In this document: piece after piece, positions 5,033-18,888 of the stretch
How the letters are laid out: each line of letters starts with the position of its first letter
Numbering within the stretch: the stretch's first letter is position 1
Virus record (IMG/VR): IMGVR_UViG_3300028925_010764
DNA: 20,000 nucleotides
DNA from: an uncultured virus (IMG/VR IMGVR_UViG_3300028925_010764)
Taxonomy: Duplodnaviria; Heunggongvirae; Uroviricota; Caudoviricetes
Direction: 5' to 3' (one strand)
Made by a program: the position numbers and the translations under genes
The notes under the pieces: generated by a model
The model's input: only the letters and a program-made list of their open reading frames with translations
Databases searched by the model: none
Told to the model about the DNA's origin: nothing

Positions 5033-6084
5033 TATAGAACCCTTCCATACTTTGCTTCACCTTGGGCTTGGTAGGCTTGGTTTCTTGCCCTGTTCGCCTC
5101 ACCGGCGCTCGTGCTACCACCCCCGTTAACCTCGCTCATTCCGTAGAGCGTGGCGCCCTTAGTCACTGCACTCCCGAGGCCGGCTAGTGCGGTTCCGAAG
5201 ATGGCTCCGTTGCCTGCGATCGGCTGAACCGTGGGCAGCGGGGTCGGATTGTAGACACCAGGCTGATCAAACATAAATCGATTGAAACCGGACGACGCTT
5301 GCTCCTGCTCCCGCATGAGGCCGCGAGACGCTGCGCTCTCAGCCGCGATGGTCGACTCCATTAGCTGGTTCGGGGCATTGACGCTGGCGAGTCGGCGTGC
5401 CACCCCGGTATTTTTAATGGCCGCGTCCCCTTGCTCATTCTGGATCTTCGCGCGGGCCTCGACCAGAGCGGCGTTTGTGCCGATATTTCTGCGTGCGTCG
5501 AACTCGAGCTGGTTCTTCGCCAGTGAGTCCCCCGAGAACCCCCGGCTTCGCTGGCCGGCGTTGATGCTATTGAGCTGTTCTTCGAGGGCTTCCTTGCCTG
5601 ACTGCCTGACGACTTCGGCTTCACCCAGACGGGCTGCCTTGAGCCCCTCCATGTTCGTGAGCTCCTCCTGTGTCATCGTGCCATCGAACACTGCTCCGAT
5701 GGCATCGCCGGCTGCCTGCCGGTCGACATCGAACAATGAGGCCACACCCTCCAGTTGCGCGAGGCGCTCCTCGGGCGGCATCTTGGTGAGCGCGTCGTAA
5801 TTCTTCAGCGCATACTGGAACATCTGACTCTCGACGGAGTTCTTGTGTTCCTCCGAAAACCCGGACGTATCACGCACGGCGTAGAACGGCAGCTTGGCAA
5901 ATCCCTCGGCGCCGCGGGACTGGAGGAAGATCGCCTTCTCCAGATCCCTTTGGTTGCTTGCGTTCTCAAGGTTCGCGGCCTGAGCGCGTCTCGCCGCCTT
6001 CTGCTGGCTCTTCGCTGTGATAGCGCCGCCGACAGTTGATACGACGGCGCCGACCCCAAGTGCGATTGAAGTGAATAGTGCCAT
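5032..6084 (-). CDS. Putative DNA-ejection protein (P22 gp7 / T7 gp14-like position), 350 aa
   Basis: N-terminal hydrophobic Gly/Ala segment then Ala/Gln/Lys run (MALFTSIALGVGAVVSTVGGAITAKSQQKAARRAQAA) and a second Gly-rich hydrophobic segment near the C-terminus. Lies directly after the GNAT gene. Confidence 0.72.
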   Translation of the reverse strand: MALFTSIALGVGAVVSTVGGAITAKSQQKAARRAQAANLENASNQRDLEKAIFLQSRGAEGFAKLPFYAVRDTSGFSEEHKNSVESQMFQYALKNYDALTKMPPEERLAQLEGVASLFDVDRQAAGDAIGAVFDGTMTQEELTNMEGLKAARLGEAEVVRQSGKEALEEQLNSINAGQRSRGFSGDSLAKNQLEFDARRNIGTNAALVEARAKIQNEQGDAAIKNTGVARRLASVNAPNQLMESTIAAESAASRGLMREQEQASSGFNRFMFDQPGVYNPTPLPTVQPIAGNGAIFGTALAGLGSAVTKGATLYGMSEVNGGGSTSAGEANRARNQAYQAQGEAKYGRVL

Positions 6085-6539
6085 TAAATATCCTTTATGT
6101 AGTTGATTTCAAACTCACGTAAACCACGCCGCCCGTAGAGATCTTCGAGCTTCTCGTCGTTCATCCCGCAGATCCTCGTCATTGCAAGCCTGGCGCATCC
6201 TCGGCGTTTAGCTTCACTCTCAAGCGAGTCCAGCAATTTGATCGACGATAGCGAGCCCCGGTTCTCGGGCTTCACGAACCAGAACATCTCCGTGCACACA
6301 CTGTCTCCCGTCGTCACGTCCGGATATATGATTCCCGCGATGGTGCCGTCAATCGTGACGCCGTCCTCGTTCATCACCACGAAGCAGATCCACTTGCCGC
6401 CATCGAACAGCGCTACAAGAGTCCCCACGAACGCGTCCGCATTAAATACGCCAGGTAGGCTTGCCTCCGCGGAGAACATTCTCGCGCAGGGAACAAGGCC
6501 CGGAATCTCGTGGCGTTCAATTTTCCTTATTCCACCCAT
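6084..6539 (-). CDS. GNAT-fold acetyltransferase-like protein, 151 aa
   Basis: EMFWFVKPENRG..SIKLLDSLESEAKRRG (motif A-like) and LEDLYGRRG (motif B-like). Position before the ejection genes is usual in podoviruses. Confidence 0.85.
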   Translation of the reverse strand: MGGIRKIERHEIPGLVPCARMFSAEASLPGVFNADAFVGTLVALFDGGKWICFVVMNEDGVTIDGTIAGIIYPDVTTGDSVCTEMFWFVKPENRGSLSSIKLLDSLESEAKRRGCARLAMTRICGMNDEKLEDLYGRRGLREFEINYIKDI

Positions 6540-8377
6540 GGTGTGCGTGTGACGTGGCCTGAGTTGGAACCTCCGTGAGTTTCCCTTGATGTCCAGATTG
6601 CGATCTCCTCACCTGTGTTGAGATTCCACTCGACGGAAAACTTATTGTGATATTCAGGGCTGGCGAGCATGGGAACAGGTGGAAGAATCAAGGTCTTCTC
6701 GTAGGTCAGCATCGCCTCCCTTGAACCTGCAATCCACCACTGCGAAATGTCATTGTTGGTATGACCTGTAACAGGGTCTGCAATGTTGAAAATACTGATC
6801 GAAAATGTGTTTCTCTCCCACACGTAGATCCTTCGCTTGCTATCGTGAGGATTGTATTGGACTTGAAAAACGTAAGGGTTAGCGCCGACAACATCAGTGA
6901 ACGCATCGACGTTGACGATGCTTGCATCTTGGAGGTTTAACGCTGATCCGTGCTGAGATCCTTGGTAGATGGTTCCGTTCCACACCATTTTCCGCATCTC
7001 TATTGCTTGAACACGGGATCCCCAAAGACCTCCTTCCAATGCGTAGGTGTCAGGGTTTGCGGTTACTCCTGTTCCTCCCTCATCCAGCCAAGCAGGTCGG
7101 TAATTCCAATTTGCTCCCACGCCAACAAGCTTCGTGGTCCAGGGAGCAGCAAGAAGAACCTGATACCAACCGATGTTGTCGTTCACCAAGAGCCAGTCCG
7201 TCCCGTCAGCTTTCCGCCACACGGTTCCAGACTGGTAAACTCTCCTAACGGCGTCCATGTCCACCCCTGTCGAAAGAGGAAGCTTTATCCTGAGTATGTT
7301 TCGCGTCTTGAGGTTCACCTCGTAGAAGCGTTCAATGTTCCCATCGTGATTCCAGTTCCATCCGTAGAACTTGTCGTTGTACCCGAATGCGATTCCCCCG
7401 AAACCGAACTGTAAATCTGGGAACGGGATAGTGGCGACCGATTTGTTGACCCATGCTTTAGCGTAGAGCATCCAGCTTCCCAATGTGATCGCGTCAAGTG
7501 TCCCGTCCGTTCGGTGAATGATGTTAGGAATGTTTGCAAGCTCCTCGACTGCGATATTCGTATCGTTCCACTGAACCGAGAATGAACGGAGGGTGCCGTC
7601 CCAAAACTGCTCGACGGGAATGCGGTCGCCTACCGAATATCCTGCGTCGTCCGCGACACATTCGAGGTACACCTGGATGTGAGAAGGAGTGCCAGCAAGA
7701 TAGTGGAAAAAGTTGTGATTTGTTCCCGGCCCTGCCAACTCCGTGCCTTGAGGACTCGAATACTCCGTGAGCCCTGTGAAGTTTATGTCGGTGTTCGCTG
7801 ACGTTGCTGGCGTGCTTCCAGCCCCGCCAATCAACCGAAACGTGGACGACGTGGGTTCGTAGACGAGGCATACCAACTCGTCGGCCTTTATGTCAGCCGG
7901 CAGCAACCCTGTGTTGTCGCGCTTCGTAATCAGGATATTGTCATGATGAACGCTATCGCCCTTCTCGATCTTGATATACGAAGGGCCGGTGTTCTGACGC
8001 TTGGAATACATCCAGATCAATATGGACTTCCCGCTGGTGATTGACGGCAACTCTGCAAGTCTGAGATCGCTTCCTCCCGCCCCCCCAAGCTTGATTAGGT
8101 AGATATTGTCCTCGGTGCCAGCGTCCTCGTAGAAGTTTAGCGCGGACAAATCAAGGTGATCCGCAGTGATGATTCGATTGACTATGACGGCGGCGTCTGA
8201 AACAGCGCCGTCCTTGAACGTCCCATCATCATCGACCAATCCCTCAATCCACTCGGCCATCATGTTCGAGAAGTCTCGAAGCTTCTTCAGGTTGCTGTCG
8301 CCCTCCGCGTGCGTGACCTCCCGGCCCACGTCAAGCCTGAGAGTGAGCGCGCCTACTTGGGTTATCGGATCTGCCAT
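6527..8377 (-). CDS. Tail fibre / receptor-binding protein, 616 aa
   Basis: N-terminal LTLRLDVGREVTHAEGDSNLKKL resembles fibre attachment segments. NTGPSYIKI...ITKRDNTGLLPADIKADELVCLVYE and HYLAGTPSHIQVYLECVADDAGYSVGD resemble modules of phage fibres. The C-terminal half is aromatic and beta-rich. Confidence 0.75.
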   Translation of the reverse strand: MADPITQVGALTLRLDVGREVTHAEGDSNLKKLRDFSNMMAEWIEGLVDDDGTFKDGAVSDAAVIVNRIITADHLDLSALNFYEDAGTEDNIYLIKLGGAGGSDLRLAELPSITSGKSILIWMYSKRQNTGPSYIKIEKGDSVHHDNILITKRDNTGLLPADIKADELVCLVYEPTSSTFRLIGGAGSTPATSANTDINFTGLTEYSSPQGTELAGPGTNHNFFHYLAGTPSHIQVYLECVADDAGYSVGDRIPVEQFWDGTLRSFSVQWNDTNIAVEELANIPNIIHRTDGTLDAITLGSWMLYAKAWVNKSVATIPFPDLQFGFGGIAFGYNDKFYGWNWNHDGNIERFYEVNLKTRNILRIKLPLSTGVDMDAVRRVYQSGTVWRKADGTDWLLVNDNIGWYQVLLAAPWTTKLVGVGANWNYRPAWLDEGGTGVTANPDTYALEGGLWGSRVQAIEMRKMVWNGTIYQGSQHGSALNLQDASIVNVDAFTDVVGANPYVFQVQYNPHDSKRRIYVWERNTFSISIFNIADPVTGHTNNDISQWWIAGSREAMLTYEKTLILPPVPMLASPEYHNKFSVEWNLNTGEEIAIWTSRETHGGSNSGHVTRTPWVE

Positions 8378-8386
8378 AGTGTCACC

Positions 8387-8599
8387 TTATGTTCCTGATT
8401 CCAGCTCTGCGATTCTTTTCTCAAGTTCTGCAATCCTCTTATTCCACAGATCCTGTGTCCTTCGCTGCCACTCGGACATCGACTCGTTAAACCCTTGAGT
8501 GTCTACAATGTTGCGAGCTCCAGAACTCAGAACGGGGATCGCCGGCCAATCCGTATCCGTCAAACGTGGGGATTCCGATTGTCTTTTAGGTCCGCTCAT
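8387..8599 (-). CDS. Small coiled-coil virion protein (position after the nozzle), 70 aa
   Basis: ATGA overlap with the nozzle gene. C-terminal heptad duplication KRIAELE-KRIAELE (8399-8440). Confidence 0.7.
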   Translation of the reverse strand: MSGPKRQSESPRLTDTDWPAIPVLSSGARNIVDTQGFNESMSEWQRRTQDLWNKRIAELEKRIAELESGT

Positions 8600-11500
8600 T
8601 GCGTGAATCCTTTCGTGTCGATCACCTTGGTCCTGAATACGCGACCGACCAATGATACCGGGTTATTCTTGCCTGACACGACGATCTTATCACCCCAGAA
8701 ATGCCGGGTAAGCTGACAGTTTCTTCGGGTGTTGGAGAGATCGGTCATTGAAATCACTTTGACCGCGGACTCGGCCAGGTCTTCCTTCGCTCCCATCAGG
8801 CTGACGGTCGCCGACATGCCATTCGTGCGCCGGCCGAGTCGGAGTTGATACCGCTCAAGCAGGACCGAGTTGAACCCCTTTCCGTTCCATGAGTCCAGGC
8901 CCGAACGGAGGGTCGAGTCGTATGACGCTCCCATCCTGTGCCAGATTGCCGGGATCACCGTCGCCGTTGTGGAGACAATGGTCGCCGACGTGTCCACTGT
9001 GACCTGTGTCGATGAGATGTATGCTGTGATCGCGTAGACCGTGTCGTCTGCCCACCTGATCGACCGGCCGACGTGCTCTGCGTCGAACGCCCCGGCTGTC
9101 GCTGTCACCGTGGTTGCGGTCTGGCTGGCAGTCACGGGAACCTCTTCGGCCGCGACGATCCCGTTTCGGATCAACGTCCCATCTGCGAGCCCCATGATGA
9201 ACCACTCCTCCGATGAGTTCGGGCGCCGTACCATTGCTCCTGACCTGGCCGGCATCACGCTCCTCGAAACCGTGTTGTATCGGTAGTCGTATCGAATGCA
9301 GTTCCCGCCCGGGAAGAACAGGATGATTTCCTTGGTGATCGTGTTGTCGCGCGCGAACACCTGGTGAGGGAGGGACTTGTCCACCTCCTTGAAGAAGCTC
9401 TCCTCCATGAATTGGAAGAACTCGATCTCGCGCGGGTGCTGGGACGTGGCGTCGAATCGATACAGCGCATTCTGCCCGATGAACAGATGCCACTCGCCCA
9501 TGACCTCGATGATTGATTCCGAATAGAGAGGGGTGTTCGGACCTTCGTAGACCTGTTCAAATCGGAACGGGGCTGCCGGCCGGCCCGTGTAGTTGCAGAT
9601 GAATATAGATCCCTTTCCGTCGAGCATCTCCTTGTAGATGATGAGCCGGTTTCGATCGAGCGGGACTGCCTTCAGGATTGCCCGTCCATCCTGATTCAAC
9701 TCGTCGAACCCAACGATGTTCCCGATCTGCGCCGTGCTCTGGATTAGGGTTTCGTCGAGCGAATGAACCGGAATCTCTGAAATTCTGATAACGGTGTTTC
9801 CGTGCGACACGGACTGAATGTCGGCTGTCAGGTTCCCCTGATTGATTCCGACCCCGGTGATGGTGATGCTGCAACCGCATTCGATCCACTTGACTGGGGA
9901 GTCCAAGACTATCGTGCGGGATCCTGCAACCACCTTCACCTTTGCGGTTGCTGCGAAATTGTGAGGCTCATCGATCGCGGACCAGAATGCCCGGTAGCTG
10001 AATCGATCGACATCTTCGGCCGTAGTCACTGCTGAGTAGTGATTGACGTTTGTGACCCTGAAACCCGTCGTTGGGATTCCCTCGTCCTTGTTCACTGTCA
10101 CCGTCTGCGTGTCGACGAAGGCGATGATCTTCCGCTCCTCGCCGGAGTCGAAGAGGATTGATTCTCCCACCATGGCCGCGGTGAACACCGGGCCCGTTGC
10201 CACCACATGGAAGTTGGTTGCCACGTCGTCGCGCAAAGTGAAGTCACGCGCAGGGTATATGAAGTCGGTCGTGTCCAGCGTTGCCACCTCTGGGCTGCCA
10301 CCTGAAAGTGATACAATCTTCCCTTGAACCCCGTTCTCGAACTCAACGATCTTCCCGACTGCCAACAGGGTGGCGCCTGCGTTCTTCGTCGAGGTCATCA
10401 GAGTCCCCTTGAGATACTTCGTCACTGCCTGATTCGGACGCTCGTCATCCGTCAGGACGGTGACGTTTGAGGTGTCCGTGAATGCTTCGACAAGATCTCG
10501 AAATCCTCTTCCCCCTTCGCTCCACACCACGACTGCCTCTTGGTTCGCGTCTGCCGCTGCGAAGATCGCCGTCGTCGCGGTGATCTTCTTCATCTTCTTC
10601 TCAGCGAAGGCGGAAACAGGAGCGCCATCGTGAAGCTCTGCAAACTCGCACTCGTTCGTATCATTTCCGGGTTCGGCGCCGTTGTATCGCGTCCGGTAGT
10701 ATCTCCAAATCTTCACGGCCTCGTCATCCGTCAGGACCTCCTTCGACATCATGACTTGGGTGGTGTATCCGCTGAATCCCCAACCCGCGACAGAGGGTGC
10801 AGTACGGAAGGAGTCTGCGGTGATCGACTGCCTGAACACGACGTTATCCGAAAGATCTCGAACCTCGATGTGCGAGACAGTGTCGTGCGTCAATGGGAAT
10901 GGGGTTGCATCATCCTCGGTCCCGGTGTCCGAGATGTGCATACGAGCGACGTACCATTTCTCTTTCACGATCCCCGTTATCTCTTGTTCTGCCGGGGGAA
11001 CCTGCTGACCCGTGCCCGACCAGACAAGCTTGTCTCCGGACATTGTTATGAATCCGCAGTTGCTTCGAATGATGTAGAGTCCACCAATCGTCACGTCCTT
11101 GAGCTGGAACATCACCCAGATTTCATGGTAATCAATAGTTCTGGGTTCCCCAACATGCGAGGCGTATGTGCCATCCCCTCCGTCCAGGGCTAAGATCGGT
11201 CCACCTTCTTCGACGGGAGGGACTACTGCGACGAGATCCTGATAGAGAACGCCTTCTTTATTAATGTCCATGTCTCCGATTCGGTCACGGAGAAACCATC
11301 CCGACCCGCCGTATTCAAGGCTACCCACATCCCAACTGTGATTGATCTTGGATACGATCAGAGACGGGTTGCTCGGAGTATTGTTACGGAAGATCTTCCA
11401 CCACTCGCATACAGGGTTTGAAGGCTGGTATCCCGAGATGGCCTGCATCGCTGTGACGCCATCGAACACAAGCGGATCACGGATGTCAGCGAGCGGCACT

Positions 11501-14370: not shown

Positions 14371-14712
14371 GCCAGTGTTGTGCCATTTCTGCCCGTCCCA
14401 CTCAAGGATAAGCGAGGTCGAGTAGGTGTCGAATTTGAATCCCGCGATGGGCGTGATGAACGAGCCCGTCAGTGTCCACGATGCCGTGGTTGAAACCAGA
14501 TCCCCGCGGACTTGGATCCGCTTGACTTGGCCCTCGTAGGTTCCAGATGGAATCGTGATCGCGTGTGGCCCTCCGGAGGCGGTGGCGAGGTAGGTGACAG
14601 CCACTCCAAGTGAAGCGGCGCCGGCGACAGTGAGAGTTTGCATGATGTTCCCGGCCGTCTCCCGGTAGAACGGGGGCGTCGGCGATTGAGCGATTACGTT
14701 TGCGTCAGACAT
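14347..14712 (-). CDS. Small virion structural protein, fibre/spike-like beta domain, 121 aa
   Basis: TAATG coupling to the adaptor gene. AITIPSGTYEGQVKRI...SLILEWDGQKW resembles a domain common in phage head and tail fibres. Confidence 0.65.
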   Translation of the reverse strand: MSDANVIAQSPTPPFYRETAGNIMQTLTVAGAASLGVAVTYLATASGGPHAITIPSGTYEGQVKRIQVRGDLVSTTASWTLTGSFITPIAGFKFDTYSTSLILEWDGQKWHNTGGNAEPTF

Positions 14713-15386
14713 TAGACTTTTTCCTGTTGCAGCCGGTGGATGGCCAATCTTTTCCTACGGTAGCTCCCGAGATATGAATTGAAAAGGCCGATCTCCTCCT
14801 CGTTCCCGCGCCTCATCTCGGCCCGGACGAAGAAAGCAACAGCCTCGGCGACCATTCGGGTGTAAGGAACCTGATCCCCGCCAGCGTAATCGGATTTGAC
14901 CCCGTTCCACCAGACGTGAACCATCATGTCCGCATCGATCGAAGGGTAGACCCACGCCGTGTAGCGCTCCGGATCCACGCAGACGTAGCCGTTTCCGTGG
15001 GAGACATCGAGCTGTCCATGCCGCATCTTGTCGAGATCCTCGAAGGGTAGGACGGTCGTGGCGTGCCTGGCCTCAGTTATCGTCAGGCCGTCGTCCTTCA
15101 TCTCCGCGCGAATGATCTTGATGCCAGTCACGGAGCCGGGAGGGAGAACGAAGCGGCTGCAGAGCCCGTCGATCGCGAGGTCGTTGGCCTGGTAGATGGT
15201 CTGGTGGCCGACACGCAGGACGGGCAGGAGCTCCTGCATCTCCGTCAAGCAGGACTTCGCCCACGCCAACTTCTCGTTGCCCTCGGTCAGTCGGTCAGCA
15301 TCGACGCTCAGATTGTCGTCGACCACCGTGAGGAAGGTCGTCCACGTCAGGGTCTGGTCTGTTGCAGTGGCAGCCGGCGCGCTCAT
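14712..15386 (-). CDS. Putative head-tail adaptor (tail tubular protein A-like), 224 aa
   Basis: Helical N-terminus, central beta region (FVLPPG...AWVYPSID...VHVWW), then VPYTRMVAEAVAFFVRAE helix. Size and position fit podovirus adaptors. Confidence 0.7.
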   Translation of the reverse strand: MSAPAATATDQTLTWTTFLTVVDDNLSVDADRLTEGNEKLAWAKSCLTEMQELLPVLRVGHQTIYQANDLAIDGLCSRFVLPPGSVTGIKIIRAEMKDDGLTITEARHATTVLPFEDLDKMRHGQLDVSHGNGYVCVDPERYTAWVYPSIDADMMVHVWWNGVKSDYAGGDQVPYTRMVAEAVAFFVRAEMRRGNEEEIGLFNSYLGSYRRKRLAIHRLQQEKV

Positions 15387-15736
15387 ACTGGGATGGGTCG
15401 GACGGTGAGAGCTTCAGCGATTGTCTCGGGGAGCTCGTAGGCGGGACGGGTGTCACCTCCCACAACCACCGCAGCCTGATCCCTTTTTAGGGACAGATGA
15501 GATCGACTTGCGAAGGCTTTTGTTTGCTGACTCGGATCGCTGAGTCGATGCTTTTTTTTTAAAAACGTCCCTTCGTCGATCTCTTCGACAGCCTGGTCTA
15601 CGGCGAGCATGGCTGCCAGCACTGGTTCTTCCGTAGAGAAAACACCAGTGATCCCGCCAGCGTGAGTGCCGGCCGGAAGGAATTGAACCCCAGCAAAGAG
15701 CCGGTTCCCAATTGACTTTGCAAAGAAATATCTCAT
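15383..15736 (-). CDS. Hypothetical protein, 117 aa (0-frame), with possible 94-aa -1 frameshift isoform
   Basis: First ORF after the terminator, ATGA-coupled to the adaptor gene. Contains in-frame TTT TTA AAA AAA AAG at codons 58-62. Confidence 0.75.
   Translation of the reverse strand: MRYFFAKSIGNRLFAGVQFLPAGTHAGGITGVFSTEEPVLAAMLAVDQAVEEIDEGTFLKKKHRLSDPSQQTKAFASRSHLSLKRDQAAVVVGGDTRPAYELPETIAEALTVRPIPV
15551..15572 (-). promoter_or_regulatory. Candidate programmed -1 frameshift / slippage signal
   Basis: Correctly phased A AAA AAG heptamer (15551-15557) inside T5A9G. SD-like AGGGA (15568-15572) lies 10 nt upstream and a GACTC/GAGTC stem starts 4 nt downstream. Confidence 0.65.
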
Positions 15737-15759
15737 TTCACTGATTAGTCCAACCTGAT

Positions 15760-15794
15760 AAAAAAAACAGGGTGCCCCTTGCGAGGCACCCCGT
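15760..15794 (-). terminator. Rho-independent terminator after the capsid/decoration genes
   Basis: Minus strand ACGGGGTGCCTC-GCAA-GGGGCACCCTG-T8: GC-rich stem with two G-U pairs, GNRA tetraloop, U tract. Confidence 0.9.
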
Positions 15795-15836
15795 CAACCT
15801 TTCACCACTCGATGGTCAACGAACCAAGGAGAGATC

Positions 15837-16661
15837 TTAATCGAGTGCCCGGCTGACTTCGATGAACCCAATATCGATGGCCATCTGAACCGTGCTCGTG
15901 GCTTCGATCCCGACATGGACAATAAGCGTCTGAGAGGCCGTCTGGGCTGAAAAGTCGGTAGTGGCCCCAGCGAGAACGTCGTTTATCCAGACTTCCGGAA
16001 TGAGCTCGGCGTTCCACTTGATCTTGAAATCGTAGACCTCGTCAACATTCACCGGGACGGAGGTCGCCGTGTAGAGTTCCGCTCCAGCGATGACCTGGAC
16101 GATGATCCAGTTCGCGTGCTGGGCCGTCGTGAGGCCCGTGGTCATCGACTCCGTTGGGTCGAACATCAGGAACACGCCGTCGCCGACCTCATCGGTAGGC
16201 AGTCCGGCCGTCACAGTCTCACGCATACCAGCAACCGCAACGATTGTGGTTATCGACGGCAGGCTCACGGAGCAGTGGAAGTGGACGTTCGTGGTTGCGT
16301 TTACGAGACACGCGAACCCGGTGCCTGCGTTTCCGCGAAGCATGGCGTCATTCGTGGCGATAGTGGTGGCATCAGTGCTAAGGTTGCACCCTCCCTTTAC
16401 GGATCGAGCGACAACTTCAGTGTCCGTGCCGAGGGCCACGACGAGTTTCGCCGAGTCTGCCGCGACGGTTGTGAGCGCCGGCAAGAGCTCGAAGTTCTCC
16501 AGTGCAGCGAGCCAGCGATGGCCGAAACCCATACCGGCCGGGCCGAAGGCGATCTCGCCATACGGTTCGACGTTAACTTTGTCTCGGAATGCGTCGGCGG
16601 AATCCGAGGAGGCGGATCCGTAGACCCGTCCTTTTCTGCGAAGGTCAACTTGAGTGCTCAT
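15837..16661 (-). CDS. Putative capsid decoration / structural protein, possible ConA-like beta-sandwich, 274 aa
   Basis: Thr/Ala/Val-rich all-beta pattern (VYDFKIKWNAELIPEVWINDVLAG; AIDIGFIEVSR). Lies in the capsid transcription unit before the terminator. Confidence 0.6.
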   Translation of the reverse strand: MSTQVDLRRKGRVYGSASSDSADAFRDKVNVEPYGEIAFGPAGMGFGHRWLAALENFELLPALTTVAADSAKLVVALGTDTEVVARSVKGGCNLSTDATTIATNDAMLRGNAGTGFACLVNATTNVHFHCSVSLPSITTIVAVAGMRETVTAGLPTDEVGDGVFLMFDPTESMTTGLTTAQHANWIIVQVIAGAELYTATSVPVNVDEVYDFKIKWNAELIPEVWINDVLAGATTDFSAQTASQTLIVHVGIEATSTVQMAIDIGFIEVSRALD

Positions 16662-17223: not shown

Positions 17224-18888
17224 TTACACAGTGCAGCCAGCGACCGTTAGGACCGGGCAGTCATCGTTGAAATTGTCGATGCCGTGATGCCGGTTCATGT
17301 CCTCCATGCAGACCGACCACTTGGTCGAGTTGAGCTGGTAGTGGTGCACGTTGGCCTTGATAATCGTGTTGTAAATATCGTCGGCGATGTTCGTCTGGCG
17401 AGTGGCGCTGGACGTCGCGGCGATACCAACCTGGACGTCGGACCAGTCAATGGCCCAGAGCGTTCGGCCACGGTTGCGGTCGGCGGCAGCGAAGGCGAGT
17501 AACCGGTCATCGAAATACTCGTGATGGAACACGCACAACTCGTAGGTGCCAAGGTCGGGCGGCAACTGGTAGACGTTGTAGTTGAAGATAATCTGGCTCT
17601 CGTGCTGCAGCTTGCCAGTCTCCGAGTAGTTGCGGACATCCTGGGTGCCATACTTGGCAGCGTAGAAGCCTGAGAACATCTGGAGAATCTTGCCGGCCGT
17701 CTCGCGGTCGGTCATCACGTCGATGCGATCCACGCTGCCGCCGTCAGCCTGGCGGGCTCGCTTCACGTTCTGCAGCGTGGAGATCAGAGTCTCGACGGAG
17801 AGCGGGTTGCCTTGGTGATCGAGCCACCGGCCGCAGTCCTGCATCTGAGTCTTGATGCCCTTAGCGTTGGCCTTGAACTCGAACGTGCAGCTCGGGTTGA
17901 CCGGATCAACGACAGTCGGCAGCGACCGGTAAGTCTCGTCAGCTTGGAACTCATTGATGCGTTGGCCGTAGAACAGGGAATGCTGCCACGATTTCAGGTG
18001 GCGAGCGTGCTGCTGGCGCTTCTGCTCGGCGAGCGGGAGCTGGGTGAAGTTCTTCCAGAACCCCGACATTAGGCCGGCGTCCAGAGCTTCGAGATACTCG
18101 TCATTGTATTCGTGCGTCTCCCGGCTGGTCTGCAACCAGAAGGTCAGAAGATCGTTGGGATTGTCGTGAGCATCGTTGAACGCGTGAGACTCGTAATCGG
18201 AGACACTGTTGGCGAGAATGAGGATATTGCCACTGGCCGTTCCCCAGTCGGTCTTCTCGCCAGCCGTTAACGCGGTGTATCCGGCTCCGGTCAGGTTCGG
18301 CTCGACGGTGATCTTAGCCGACTCGGTCCCTCCCGAGGTCGAGTTGGCAGTCGCGATGATCTTGAACTGCAGGGAAAGTGAGTCGCCGCTCGTGTCCAGA
18401 CATTCGACGAGGAGGTATTTGCCGGGCTGGAAGTAGCGTTCGAGATCCACGAGCGCCGTAGAGTAGGTGCTCGGGTTGTTCTCGATGGTGATGTCCCGCA
18501 TACCAGGGTGGACAGCGCCCACTCCAGCACCAGGTGTCGCAGTGCTGGCAGTCAGCAACCACGAGTTCGCATTGATGTTATGCTTCTGGCGCCGGTAGAA
18601 ATACGGCAGGATCACTGACCCTTGGCCGGGGATGGAGACTGGGTTGATTGCGCCCTTGATCGGAGCAATGGCGCCCATTAGAAGCATGTCGATGGGCGTT
18701 TCGATGTAGCCCGCGGCCCGCGCTTCCTGAGCGTTCGCGATGATGTCGTCCATCTTAACCTCGTCGCTGCCTTGGTCGGCAAACATTTGAGGCGTCATGC
18801 CGTTGATGTCGGCCCTTGTCAATGTGCAGCCGGTGGATTGTCCAACGGAGACGATTCGGGGTGTGCAAGAACCATTAAATTCAGCCAT
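17224..18888 (-). CDS. Major capsid protein (HK97-fold expected), 554 aa
   Basis: Strong C/G-ending codon bias. FWLQTSRETHEY, HSLFYGQR, KGIKTQM and LWAIDWSDV segments are ordered like SU10/DUF5309-type capsid motifs, by recall. Position is after a scaffold-like gene and before decoration genes and a terminator. Confidence 0.78.
   Translation of the reverse strand: MAEFNGSCTPRIVSVGQSTGCTLTRADINGMTPQMFADQGSDEVKMDDIIANAQEARAAGYIETPIDMLLMGAIAPIKGAINPVSIPGQGSVILPYFYRRQKHNINANSWLLTASTATPGAGVGAVHPGMRDITIENNPSTYSTALVDLERYFQPGKYLLVECLDTSGDSLSLQFKIIATANSTSGGTESAKITVEPNLTGAGYTALTAGEKTDWGTASGNILILANSVSDYESHAFNDAHDNPNDLLTFWLQTSRETHEYNDEYLEALDAGLMSGFWKNFTQLPLAEQKRQQHARHLKSWQHSLFYGQRINEFQADETYRSLPTVVDPVNPSCTFEFKANAKGIKTQMQDCGRWLDHQGNPLSVETLISTLQNVKRARQADGGSVDRIDVMTDRETAGKILQMFSGFYAAKYGTQDVRNYSETGKLQHESQIIFNYNVYQLPPDLGTYELCVFHHEYFDDRLLAFAAADRNRGRTLWAIDWSDVQVGIAATSSATRQTNIADDIYNTIIKANVHHYQLNSTKWSVCMEDMNRHHGIDNFNDDCPVLTVAGCTV

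Follow-up and report, generated by a model that had tools for sequence, protein, structure and literature searches.

In the window, a stretch of 20,000 nucleotides (nt) from an uncultured virus of the Caudoviricetes (IMG/VR record IMGVR_UViG_3300028925_010764), one small gene very probably yields two proteins with a common N-terminal domain (N-domain) and different tails. Nine consecutive A's (A9) stand in the gene where this domain ends, and the run may best be read as a conserved programmed recoding site at which the shift is mainly transcriptional, caused by slippage of RNA polymerase, a reading that I hold with a little more than even confidence. Standard decoding would give a long isoform of 117 amino acids (aa), in which a tail rich in Pro and Ala, its end conserved, follows the N-domain. 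A move by one base into the -1 frame at the run would instead give a 94-aa short isoform, in which the same N-domain leads through a predicted helix and a basic stretch to G-C-x-x-C-G at the C-terminus. RNA polymerase would slip on the nine-A homopolymer, adding an A to some of the mRNAs in the manner of Thermus dnaX, with a possible further contribution from ribosomes that slip by -1 on the in-phase A AAA AAG. Comparison with relatives lends strong support to the idea of two products, one of which has a tail with a conserved Cys pair.

The gene and its two frames

All long open reading frames (ORFs) of the window lie on the minus strand, and the features of the recoded gene, written here with a Shine-Dalgarno-like motif as SD-like, are as follows.

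15383..15736, minus strand: 0-frame ORF of the recoded gene (protein P0001), 117 aa, the long isoform
15552..15560, minus strand: A9 run, the proposed slip site, TT[A AAA AAA AA]G, read as L59 K60 K61 K62
15561..15565, minus strand: T5 preceding A9, peculiar to the window; the other five lineages with A9 have G, G, G, C and C-ending contexts and no T run
15551..15557, minus strand: in-phase heptamer A AAA AAG, a possible ribosomal -1 site, in the phase of the 117-aa ORF
15568..15572, minus strand: SD-like AGGGA, ending 10 nt before the last heptamer
15453..15560, minus strand: -1-frame tail and stop, KKK followed by ASTQRSESANKSLRKSISSVPKKGSGCGGCGR*, the putative C-terminus of the 94-aa short isoform
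15462..15473, minus strand: the CGGC codons TGC GGT GGT TGT of the -1 frame, overlapping 0-frame GCT GCG GTG GTT GTG (AAVVV)
15383..15386, minus strand: ATGA overlap, in which the 117-aa ORF stops and the next gene starts

The sequence at the run, read on the minus strand, is GAA GGG ACG TTT TTA AAA AAA AAG CAT, with a G directly after A9 at 15551. P0001 consists of an N-domain of about 60 aa, then KKK, then a tail that bears an AAVVVGG motif and terminates in ...ETIAEALTVRPIPV; the 0 frame of the 117-aa ORF accordingly closes on ...PAYELPETIAEALTVRPIPV. From K62 the -1 frame is open for 32 codons and finishes in GSGCGGCGR*, with TGA at 15455-15453, which gives 62+32 = 94 aa, and the +1 frame is closed about 20 codons past the run. 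A sequence-only reading of this DNA had pointed to three overlapping in-phase heptamers, the AGGGA and the -1 tail, and each of these was confirmed in place.

A9 is the sole A or T run of at least nine within the window. Lys is written AAG 227 times versus AAA 84 times in the window's 16 long ORFs and, given the protein, the probability of at least nine A's at the run is 0.021. On the antisense strand, a stem at 15528-15547 (+), just 3' of the slip site, together with T9 receives a terminator-like score (8 pairs, 4-nt stem-to-T spacing); this site is probably incidental.

Conservation of the run and of both tails

Relatives of the gene were gathered without using the run. A word-indexed protein search gave two close relatives (P0002 at 98% and P0003 at 78% identity), and an exhaustive search with a hidden Markov model (HMM) of the 117-aa family gave nine proteins; P0016 (1482 aa) was discarded from the HMM matches, as only repeated low-complexity stretches aligned. 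K61 and K62 are invariant in the ten-protein alignment, and K60 is nearly so. The 117-aa protein and its three-sequence alignment had no match in viral, metagenome or genome contigs; among the later family alignments, the one labelled A4 had no match in viral or genome contigs and the one labelled A8 had none.

The DNA of relatives was reached by two routes, through the neighbouring gene, which encodes a concanavalin A (ConA)-like protein (eight loci, one of them also in IMG/VR), and through protein homology (L010, the same as L011). With an HMM of the N-domain, the small gene was located beside its ConA-like neighbour in L002, L003, L005 and L007; it is cut by the contig end in L004, gives a weak match in L001, lies upstream of the ConA-like gene in L006, and was not found by this HMM in L008. 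At 8804-10582 of L006/L009, the small gene has no A run and lies on the upstream side of the gene for a ConA-like protein of 384 aa that is extended at its N-terminus. The unbiased set comprises eight distinct complete genes with DNA: the window, L001, L002, L003, L005, L006, L007 and L010. In six of the eight, exactly nine A's stand at the end of the N-domain.

Window: run TTA AAA AAA AAG, first A in codon position 3; -1 tail end GSGCGGCGR*
L003: run CGA AAA AAA AAG, first A in codon position 3; -1 tail end GDCRTCGKSRT*
L010: run GCA AAA AAA AAG, first A in codon position 3; -1 tail end GNGCPSCGRGPVPAAS*
L007: run AAA AAA AAA CGC, first A in codon position 1; -1 tail end GSGCRSC*
L005: run AAA AAA AAA CGG, first A in codon position 1; -1 tail end ACGHCRGQQS*
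L002: run CAA AAA AAA ATC, first A in codon position 2; -1 tail end GKRCCGRS*

These six are the sole A or T runs of at least nine in 122,164 nt (window and loci), and they stand in proteins only about 30-45% identical, with different nucleotides flanking the run. Past the Lys codons, all six have a -1 frame that stays open for 32-46 codons and has a Cys pair 0-7 residues before its stop, of the form CxxC in five lineages and CC in one. The 0-frame tails keep motifs of their own, ..KG.GAVVV.. and ..DAL.V..V. L007, L003, L002 and L010 each have a stop in the -1 frame 2-7 codons ahead of the run, which leaves the run as the sole point of entry into that frame. Independent initiation of the -1 ORF was considered and set aside, given -1 stops 2-3 codons before the run in several lineages, with no start codon in between. 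Of the lineages that have no run, L001 has a -1 frame that closes after 14 codons, and L006 has one still open for 31 codons that finishes in RRCGSKACNP*. The run, the -1 Cys-pair tail and the 0-frame tail are thus all conserved in distant relatives, a comparison of homologues that the sequence-only reading had proposed and that supports its claim of two proteins from one small gene.

It might be argued that there is no recoding at all. The run would then consist of plain Lys codons, the -1 ORF and its cysteines would be a by-product of the 0-frame G-x-G-A-V-V-V, and the 117-aa protein would be the only product. The CxxC codons do overlap conserved 0-frame Ala/Val codons, not only in the window but, as an overlap with A-x-x-V, also in L007, L003, L005 and L010. 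TGC arises from xxT GCx and TGT from xxT GTx of these codons, so the cysteines depend on 0-frame wobble bases, and the conservation of one motif could be partly a by-product of that of the other. The support for recoding and for two products is, besides, comparative throughout. The worry that CxxC is a by-product is countered by a control that holds the 0-frame protein constant, in which the 0-frame tail was recoded synonymously with the locus's own codon usage in 20,000 trials per lineage. A -1 ORF of at least 30 codons with CxxC in its last 12 residues appeared in 0.14-1.24% of trials per lineage (P = 0.0053 for the window alone); with the looser pattern C..C, L002 gave 2.3%. At least nine A's arose in 0.8-8.1% of trials per lineage, with a product of 4e-10, a figure that overstates independence because the lineages share ancestry. 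AAG being the preferred Lys codon also speaks against an idle run of Lys codons, as do the two relatives, described below, that encode the Cys tail in frame, and I consider the absence of recoding highly improbable. These comparisons show that the run and both downstream frames are under selection.

The signature alone also retrieves the family from among 2.9 million viral contigs, a further argument that the run is no accident of Lys codons. The pattern scanned for in IMG/VR was A9, then 60-90 nt, then GGN TGY N6 TGY GG, with exact matches only, and 115 loci matched it. A9 and CxxC are built into the selection of these loci, and the only evidence to be drawn from them is in the frame relation, the phase and the N-domain upstream. 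The run is directly preceded by the same N-domain in 34 of the 115 (E<1e-3 after HMM iteration), which correspond to 29 unique DNAs and to 20 clusters at 60% identity of the N-part; the other 81 have E>=0.9 to the N-domain. Of the 34 family loci, 33 have their Cys pair in the -1 frame with respect to the N-domain; among the non-family hits the Cys frame is -1 in 35, the same in 29 and +1 in 17. The first A of the run occupies phase 3 in 15 of the family clusters, phase 2 in three and phase 1 in two. The long 0-frame tails of these clusters are Pro/Ala-rich, several with a basic F.ARTRR-like end. L131, which was found via an N-domain pattern alone, likewise has A9 and a -1 frame ending in ...PCGACGRH*. 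Some of the 81 non-family hits (L045, L070, L071, L100 and others) recur in near-identical contexts, with A9 and an in-frame G-C-x-x-C-G about 25 codons on, and may represent other families with a similar layout of Lys run and Cys pair.

Two relatives carry the Cys tail in the frame of the N-domain. P0014 (94 aa) reads, after FLKKK, ASSGLSERQIASLQSSITPVPAKKSGCGGCGN, a homologue of the window's -1 tail, and finishes in KKSGCGGCGN. In L026 the run is ten A's long (A10) and the CxxC tail is read in frame; its +1 frame, open over 80 aa, is a homologue of L016's long tail (TTEA.PP.EPLL). P0014 seems to be a variant of this type. Homopolymers slip in replication too, according to an excerpt of PMC3711429, and with these variants in mind one might suppose that run length varies at the level of DNA, such that replication slippage would produce mixed A9/A10 phage populations, each genotype making one isoform, much as at a contingency locus. 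Yet the same length and frame recur in all six A9 lineages of the unbiased set, the same frame recurs in 33 of 34 signature genes, and a contig from sequencing run X8, about 96% identical to the window, spans the A-run with no indel. The mutation rate of a nine-base run per replication is also far too low for both structural proteins to be provided in a single burst. I regard this as the least probable of the explanations considered, and very unlikely.

The run length was read from assembled contigs. The sequencing runs that hold the window DNA are recorded as marine or seawater metagenomes, and X2, X6 and X9 cover only scraps of the stretch. Between the X8 contig and the window there are no listed differences at 15429-15571, five in the next 106 nt (15572-15677) and 24 at 14700-15421 (25 in the piece table); because differences less than about 30 nt from a contig end go unlisted, extra constraint on the frame overlap is only weakly indicated. 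In P0002, a 98% identical protein found on four contigs, the 0 frame is intact through the run.

RNA polymerase or ribosome

Homopolymers of at least eight are the usual sites of transcriptional realignment, and orthologues that need different shift directions are a sign of transcription whereas a uniform -1 direction is a sign of ribosomal shifting, according to PMC3711429. Runs of nine A or T slip efficiently in vivo, and the Thermus dnaX run of nine (written as T's in that review) gives about 50% full-length product (both from an excerpt of PMC5009743). In favour of the polymerase, the length of the phage run is kept irrespective of codon phase (3, 3, 3, 1, 1 and 2 in the six lineages), and it stays at nine where, in the given phase, seven or eight A's would complete a heptamer. 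The Leu, Arg and Ala codons that precede the run in the three phase-3 lineages each have A as third base. As L026 has A10 and an in-frame CxxC, the direction of shift in the family may be mixed, which would be the mark of transcriptional realignment in the excerpt of PMC3711429. An A10 genotype could still make both proteins if the polymerase gives transcripts of mixed length, which would be impossible with a -1 ribosomal slip alone. These in-frame variants are given modest weight because they are two single short contigs.

The alternative is programmed ribosomal -1 frameshifting on A AAA AAG, either dnaX-like with AGGGA as stimulator or stimulator-free and at a low level, which would give the same two proteins and which I think possible, if rather unlikely. 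Lambda G/GT frameshifts at a low level without stimulators, and ribosomes can slide on poly(A); any contribution of such sliding is counted here as ribosomal. Several observations tell against a mainly transcriptional shift, some of them by favouring the ribosome. Five of the first six lineages have GAGG or AGGGA some 10 nt ahead of the last heptamer, which is the spacing of the SD stimulator in E. coli dnaX. The window and all the other A9 lineages have the in-phase heptamer; since nine A's contain an A AAA AAN in phase whichever codon position they start at, the heptamer alone cannot separate the two mechanisms. The direction is -1 in 6/6 and 33/34 genes, a sign of ribosomal shifting by the excerpted account in PMC3711429. 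Nine is not an absolute length, since A10 occurs in 4 of the 20 clusters, and errors of assembly or recent mutation could account for both P0014 (one 2.5-kb contig, seen as protein only) and L026 (one 5.4-kb contig).

I nevertheless favour RNA-polymerase slippage over the dnaX-like ribosomal cassette that the sequence-only reading had put first, because the SD-like motif and the 3' stem are not features of the family. An SD-like 4-mer precedes the run in only 3 of the 20 clusters. The GAGG motifs fall on Glu-Asp, Glu-Glu, Glu-Ala and Glu-Gly codon pairs and so may be plain protein sequence; the window's AGGGA is probably merely its Glu-Gly codons. None of 15 gene starts in the window, whose DNA is 56% G+C, is preceded by GGAG or GAGG, the leaders being A/C-rich with a weak AGGA or AAGG in six, and this suggests a host that makes little use of SD pairing. 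No consistent stimulatory RNA structure was found 5' or 3' of the run across the family. Downstream folding compared with shuffled sequences gave z from -2.5 to +0.95 in the six lineages and a mean z of 0.00 in the 20 cluster representatives, 2 of 20 falling below -2; in the window there is only a local 5-bp stem 3' of the run, and the minimum free energy over 60 nt is -11.7 kcal/mol (z -0.95). An Rfam scan of 15300-15850 at E<=10 gave no frameshift element, only ctRNA_pGA1 and SprD at chance level, both in the terminator region. T5 and the first of the three heptamers, too, are specific to the window. What ribosomal shifting would leave unexplained is a run nine long where the phase needs seven or eight, and the A10 and in-frame variants. 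The dnaX-like cassette has thus given way to what had been offered as a fallback, polymerase slippage on A9, which fits better with A9 in three phases and with two relatives that have the CxxC tail in frame, one of them A10.

Genome context, known systems and possible role

This is a dark phage family related to phages that bear crAss/SU10 capsids, with what would be a known type of recoding. The recoded gene is placed in the virion module, downstream of a crAss/SU10-like capsid candidate, an order kept in relatives, and its neighbourhood in the window is as follows.

17224..18888, minus strand: 554-aa putative major capsid protein, crAss/SU10-like by ESM Atlas, two genes upstream of the recoded gene
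15837..16661, minus strand: 274-aa upstream gene, a ConA-like (SO2946-like) beta-sandwich, AlphaFold predicted local distance difference test (pLDDT) 81.5
15760..15795, minus strand: intrinsic-terminator-like hairpin with T8 (13 pairs, 8 GC), between the 274-aa gene and the recoded gene
14712..15386, minus strand: 224-aa downstream gene in conserved synteny, with 29% identity (E 1e-30) to the downstream gene of L007 and E 3e-12 to that of L003

Pfam and PHROG searches matched nearly no protein of the window, and among those with no match in either are the capsid candidate, the 224-aa protein, and the recoded gene with its 20 relatives (the 20 family representatives had no PHROG match). The names 'head-tail gene' and 'adaptor gene', which the sequence-only reading gave to the recoded gene and to the gene after it, are thus guesses for which the Pfam and PHROG searches offered no support. 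No tRNA gene was found in the window. In ESM Atlas the 554-aa protein has a feature score of 0.98 to Crass_capsid or SU10_MCP clusters, with structural template modelling (TM) scores of 0.55-0.71, and it is 25% identical (E 2e-41) to the L128 protein encoded directly upstream of an A9 gene. Related loci have the order portal-sized gene, capsid candidate, 0-2 small genes, A-run gene and tail-like genes; in L127-L129 the succession of portal-sized gene, capsid gene and A9 gene is the same, and a terminase large subunit is present in L003, L006 and L007. The best PDB match of the 274-aa protein by Foldseek is 2a5z (E 5.6e-7), followed by legume lectins, and its BFVD matches are SO2946-like and ConA-like phage proteins. 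The ConA-like gene and the A-run-family gene occur together in seven of the eight loci fetched via the former; as the ConA-like gene was not found in five other family contigs, the partnership is not a constant one. When the window is compared with the contig that carries P0003 and P0007, the small protein is 78% identical and its ConA-like neighbour just 56%, the small gene being the better conserved. No relative turned up among cultured phages in a tblastn search of 50,697 phage records, and the L007 terminase matches, among cultured phages, only Gordonia phage GMA1, at 24.5% identity.

A model of P0014 has a small alpha/beta N-domain at residues 1-60, with pLDDT 83-92 over most 10-residue blocks, and a helix that runs through the Lys residues to about residue 77; its C-terminal end is of low confidence. 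Fold searches with the N-domain gave generic RRM/ferredoxin-like matches only (Z<=5.8), its best BFVD match is an unnamed 101-aa phage protein (E 1e-3), and ESM Atlas gave no usable feature match for it; nor did the family have a PDB sequence match. There are weak echoes of FluMu_N and YqbF-like proteins in the N-domain. With this model in view, the N-domain may anchor both isoforms in the particle; the long tail may be an arm that is flexible, rich in Pro and conserved at its end, and the short tail a helix and basic stretch leading to a two-Cys half-site that would need a second copy to bind metal or to form disulfides. The mechanism, the ratio of the products, the role of both in the virion module and the use of the Cys pair for metal or disulfides are matters that I infer.

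The closest likeness to a known system is to dnaX of Thermus thermophilus, in which a homopolymer of nine lies inside the ORF, tau and gamma have a common N-terminus, and no fixed codon phase or RNA stimulator is needed (excerpts of PMC5009743 and PMC3711429). The proteins are unrelated, and the alternative frames of dnaX stop at once to give a truncated gamma, whereas the -1 frame of the phage gene specifies a conserved tail, 32-46 aa long, that bears a motif of its own, and slippage in this gene is predicted from sequence. The cassette of E. coli dnaX (A AAA AAG, SD and 3' stem-loop) has the same in-phase heptamer, and the window has its AGGGA 10 nt upstream, but the family has no conserved SD-like motif or stem, the window's fold is weak, and there is no Rfam match. 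The slippery run of E. coli dnaX is six A's, against nine in the phage gene. Among phage genes, T7/T3 gene 10A/10B, the head and tail genes of Lactobacillus phage A2, and the cases in Listeria phages PSA and A118 resemble the present case, as far as excerpts of the sources describe them, in that a gene of the virion module has a major and a minor form with a common N-terminus. There the shift takes place on different heptamers or on Pro codons and lengthens a protein of the capsid or tail tube, in many cases by an Ig-like domain, whereas here a small non-capsid protein would swap tails and the shifted form is the shorter. Searches of Pfam, PHROG, PDB and folds gave no sequence or fold relation of the recoded protein to the frameshifted phage virion proteins.

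Lambda G/GT has in common with this gene a conserved -1 shift in a small phage morphogenesis gene, but it lies between the tail tube and tape-measure genes and its shift extends G into T. I rejected a tail-chaperone reading of this kind, as the present gene follows capsid and ConA-like genes and its 94-aa -1 product is shorter than the 117-aa 0-frame product; the next gene (224 aa) is, moreover, linked to the 0-frame end via the ATGA overlap, unlike a fusion of G into T. Productive slippage of RNA polymerase on A/T runs within ORFs is described, in excerpted sources, for Shigella spa13, spa33 and mxiA and for IS630-type transposases, and their orthologues can need different shift directions (excerpts of PMC5009743 and PMC3711429). 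These, unlike the phage gene, are cellular or insertion-sequence genes in which slippage fuses or extends ORFs, and none is a phage virion-module gene. A search of the literature for productive transcriptional slippage in phage virion genes found no case, which is not proof that none is in print.

A bolder proposal, possible if short of probable, is that in this widespread, unannotated capsid-adjacent family the A9/A10 tract is a transcriptional-slippage switch that sets the ratio of two C-terminal modules, which would make it the first case in virion genes of tailed phages where slippage of RNA polymerase is put to productive use. The basic G-C-x-x-C-G of the short isoform would pair copies through zinc or disulfides as a minor structural element, and the genotype could flip between A9 and A10 as both would yield both proteins. 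The family spans at least 25 distinct uncultured phage lineages with no relative in Pfam, PHROG or PDB and no cultured representative, and gene callers annotate just one of the gene's two products. Few features of dark phage genes can be both read from sequence and put directly to the test, and recoding sites belong to them; here A9 in three phases, together with the A10 variants, offers a natural series for separating polymerase from ribosomal slippage, and a simple DNA signature is available for finding further members. Should the short isoform exist, the conserved pair of cysteines at its C-terminus would suggest that a component near crAss/SU10-like capsids is linked by metal or disulfides.

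Two other genes deserve mention. In L127, the gene right after the A-run gene (7094-8650, minus strand) encodes 518 aa with a calcineurin-like phosphoesterase domain (Pfam E 1.3e-10). In the window, a GNAT-type acetyltransferase (6084-6539, minus strand; PHROG 1249, E 1e-11) sits amid very large unannotated genes of 616, 626, 1051+ and 1172 aa.

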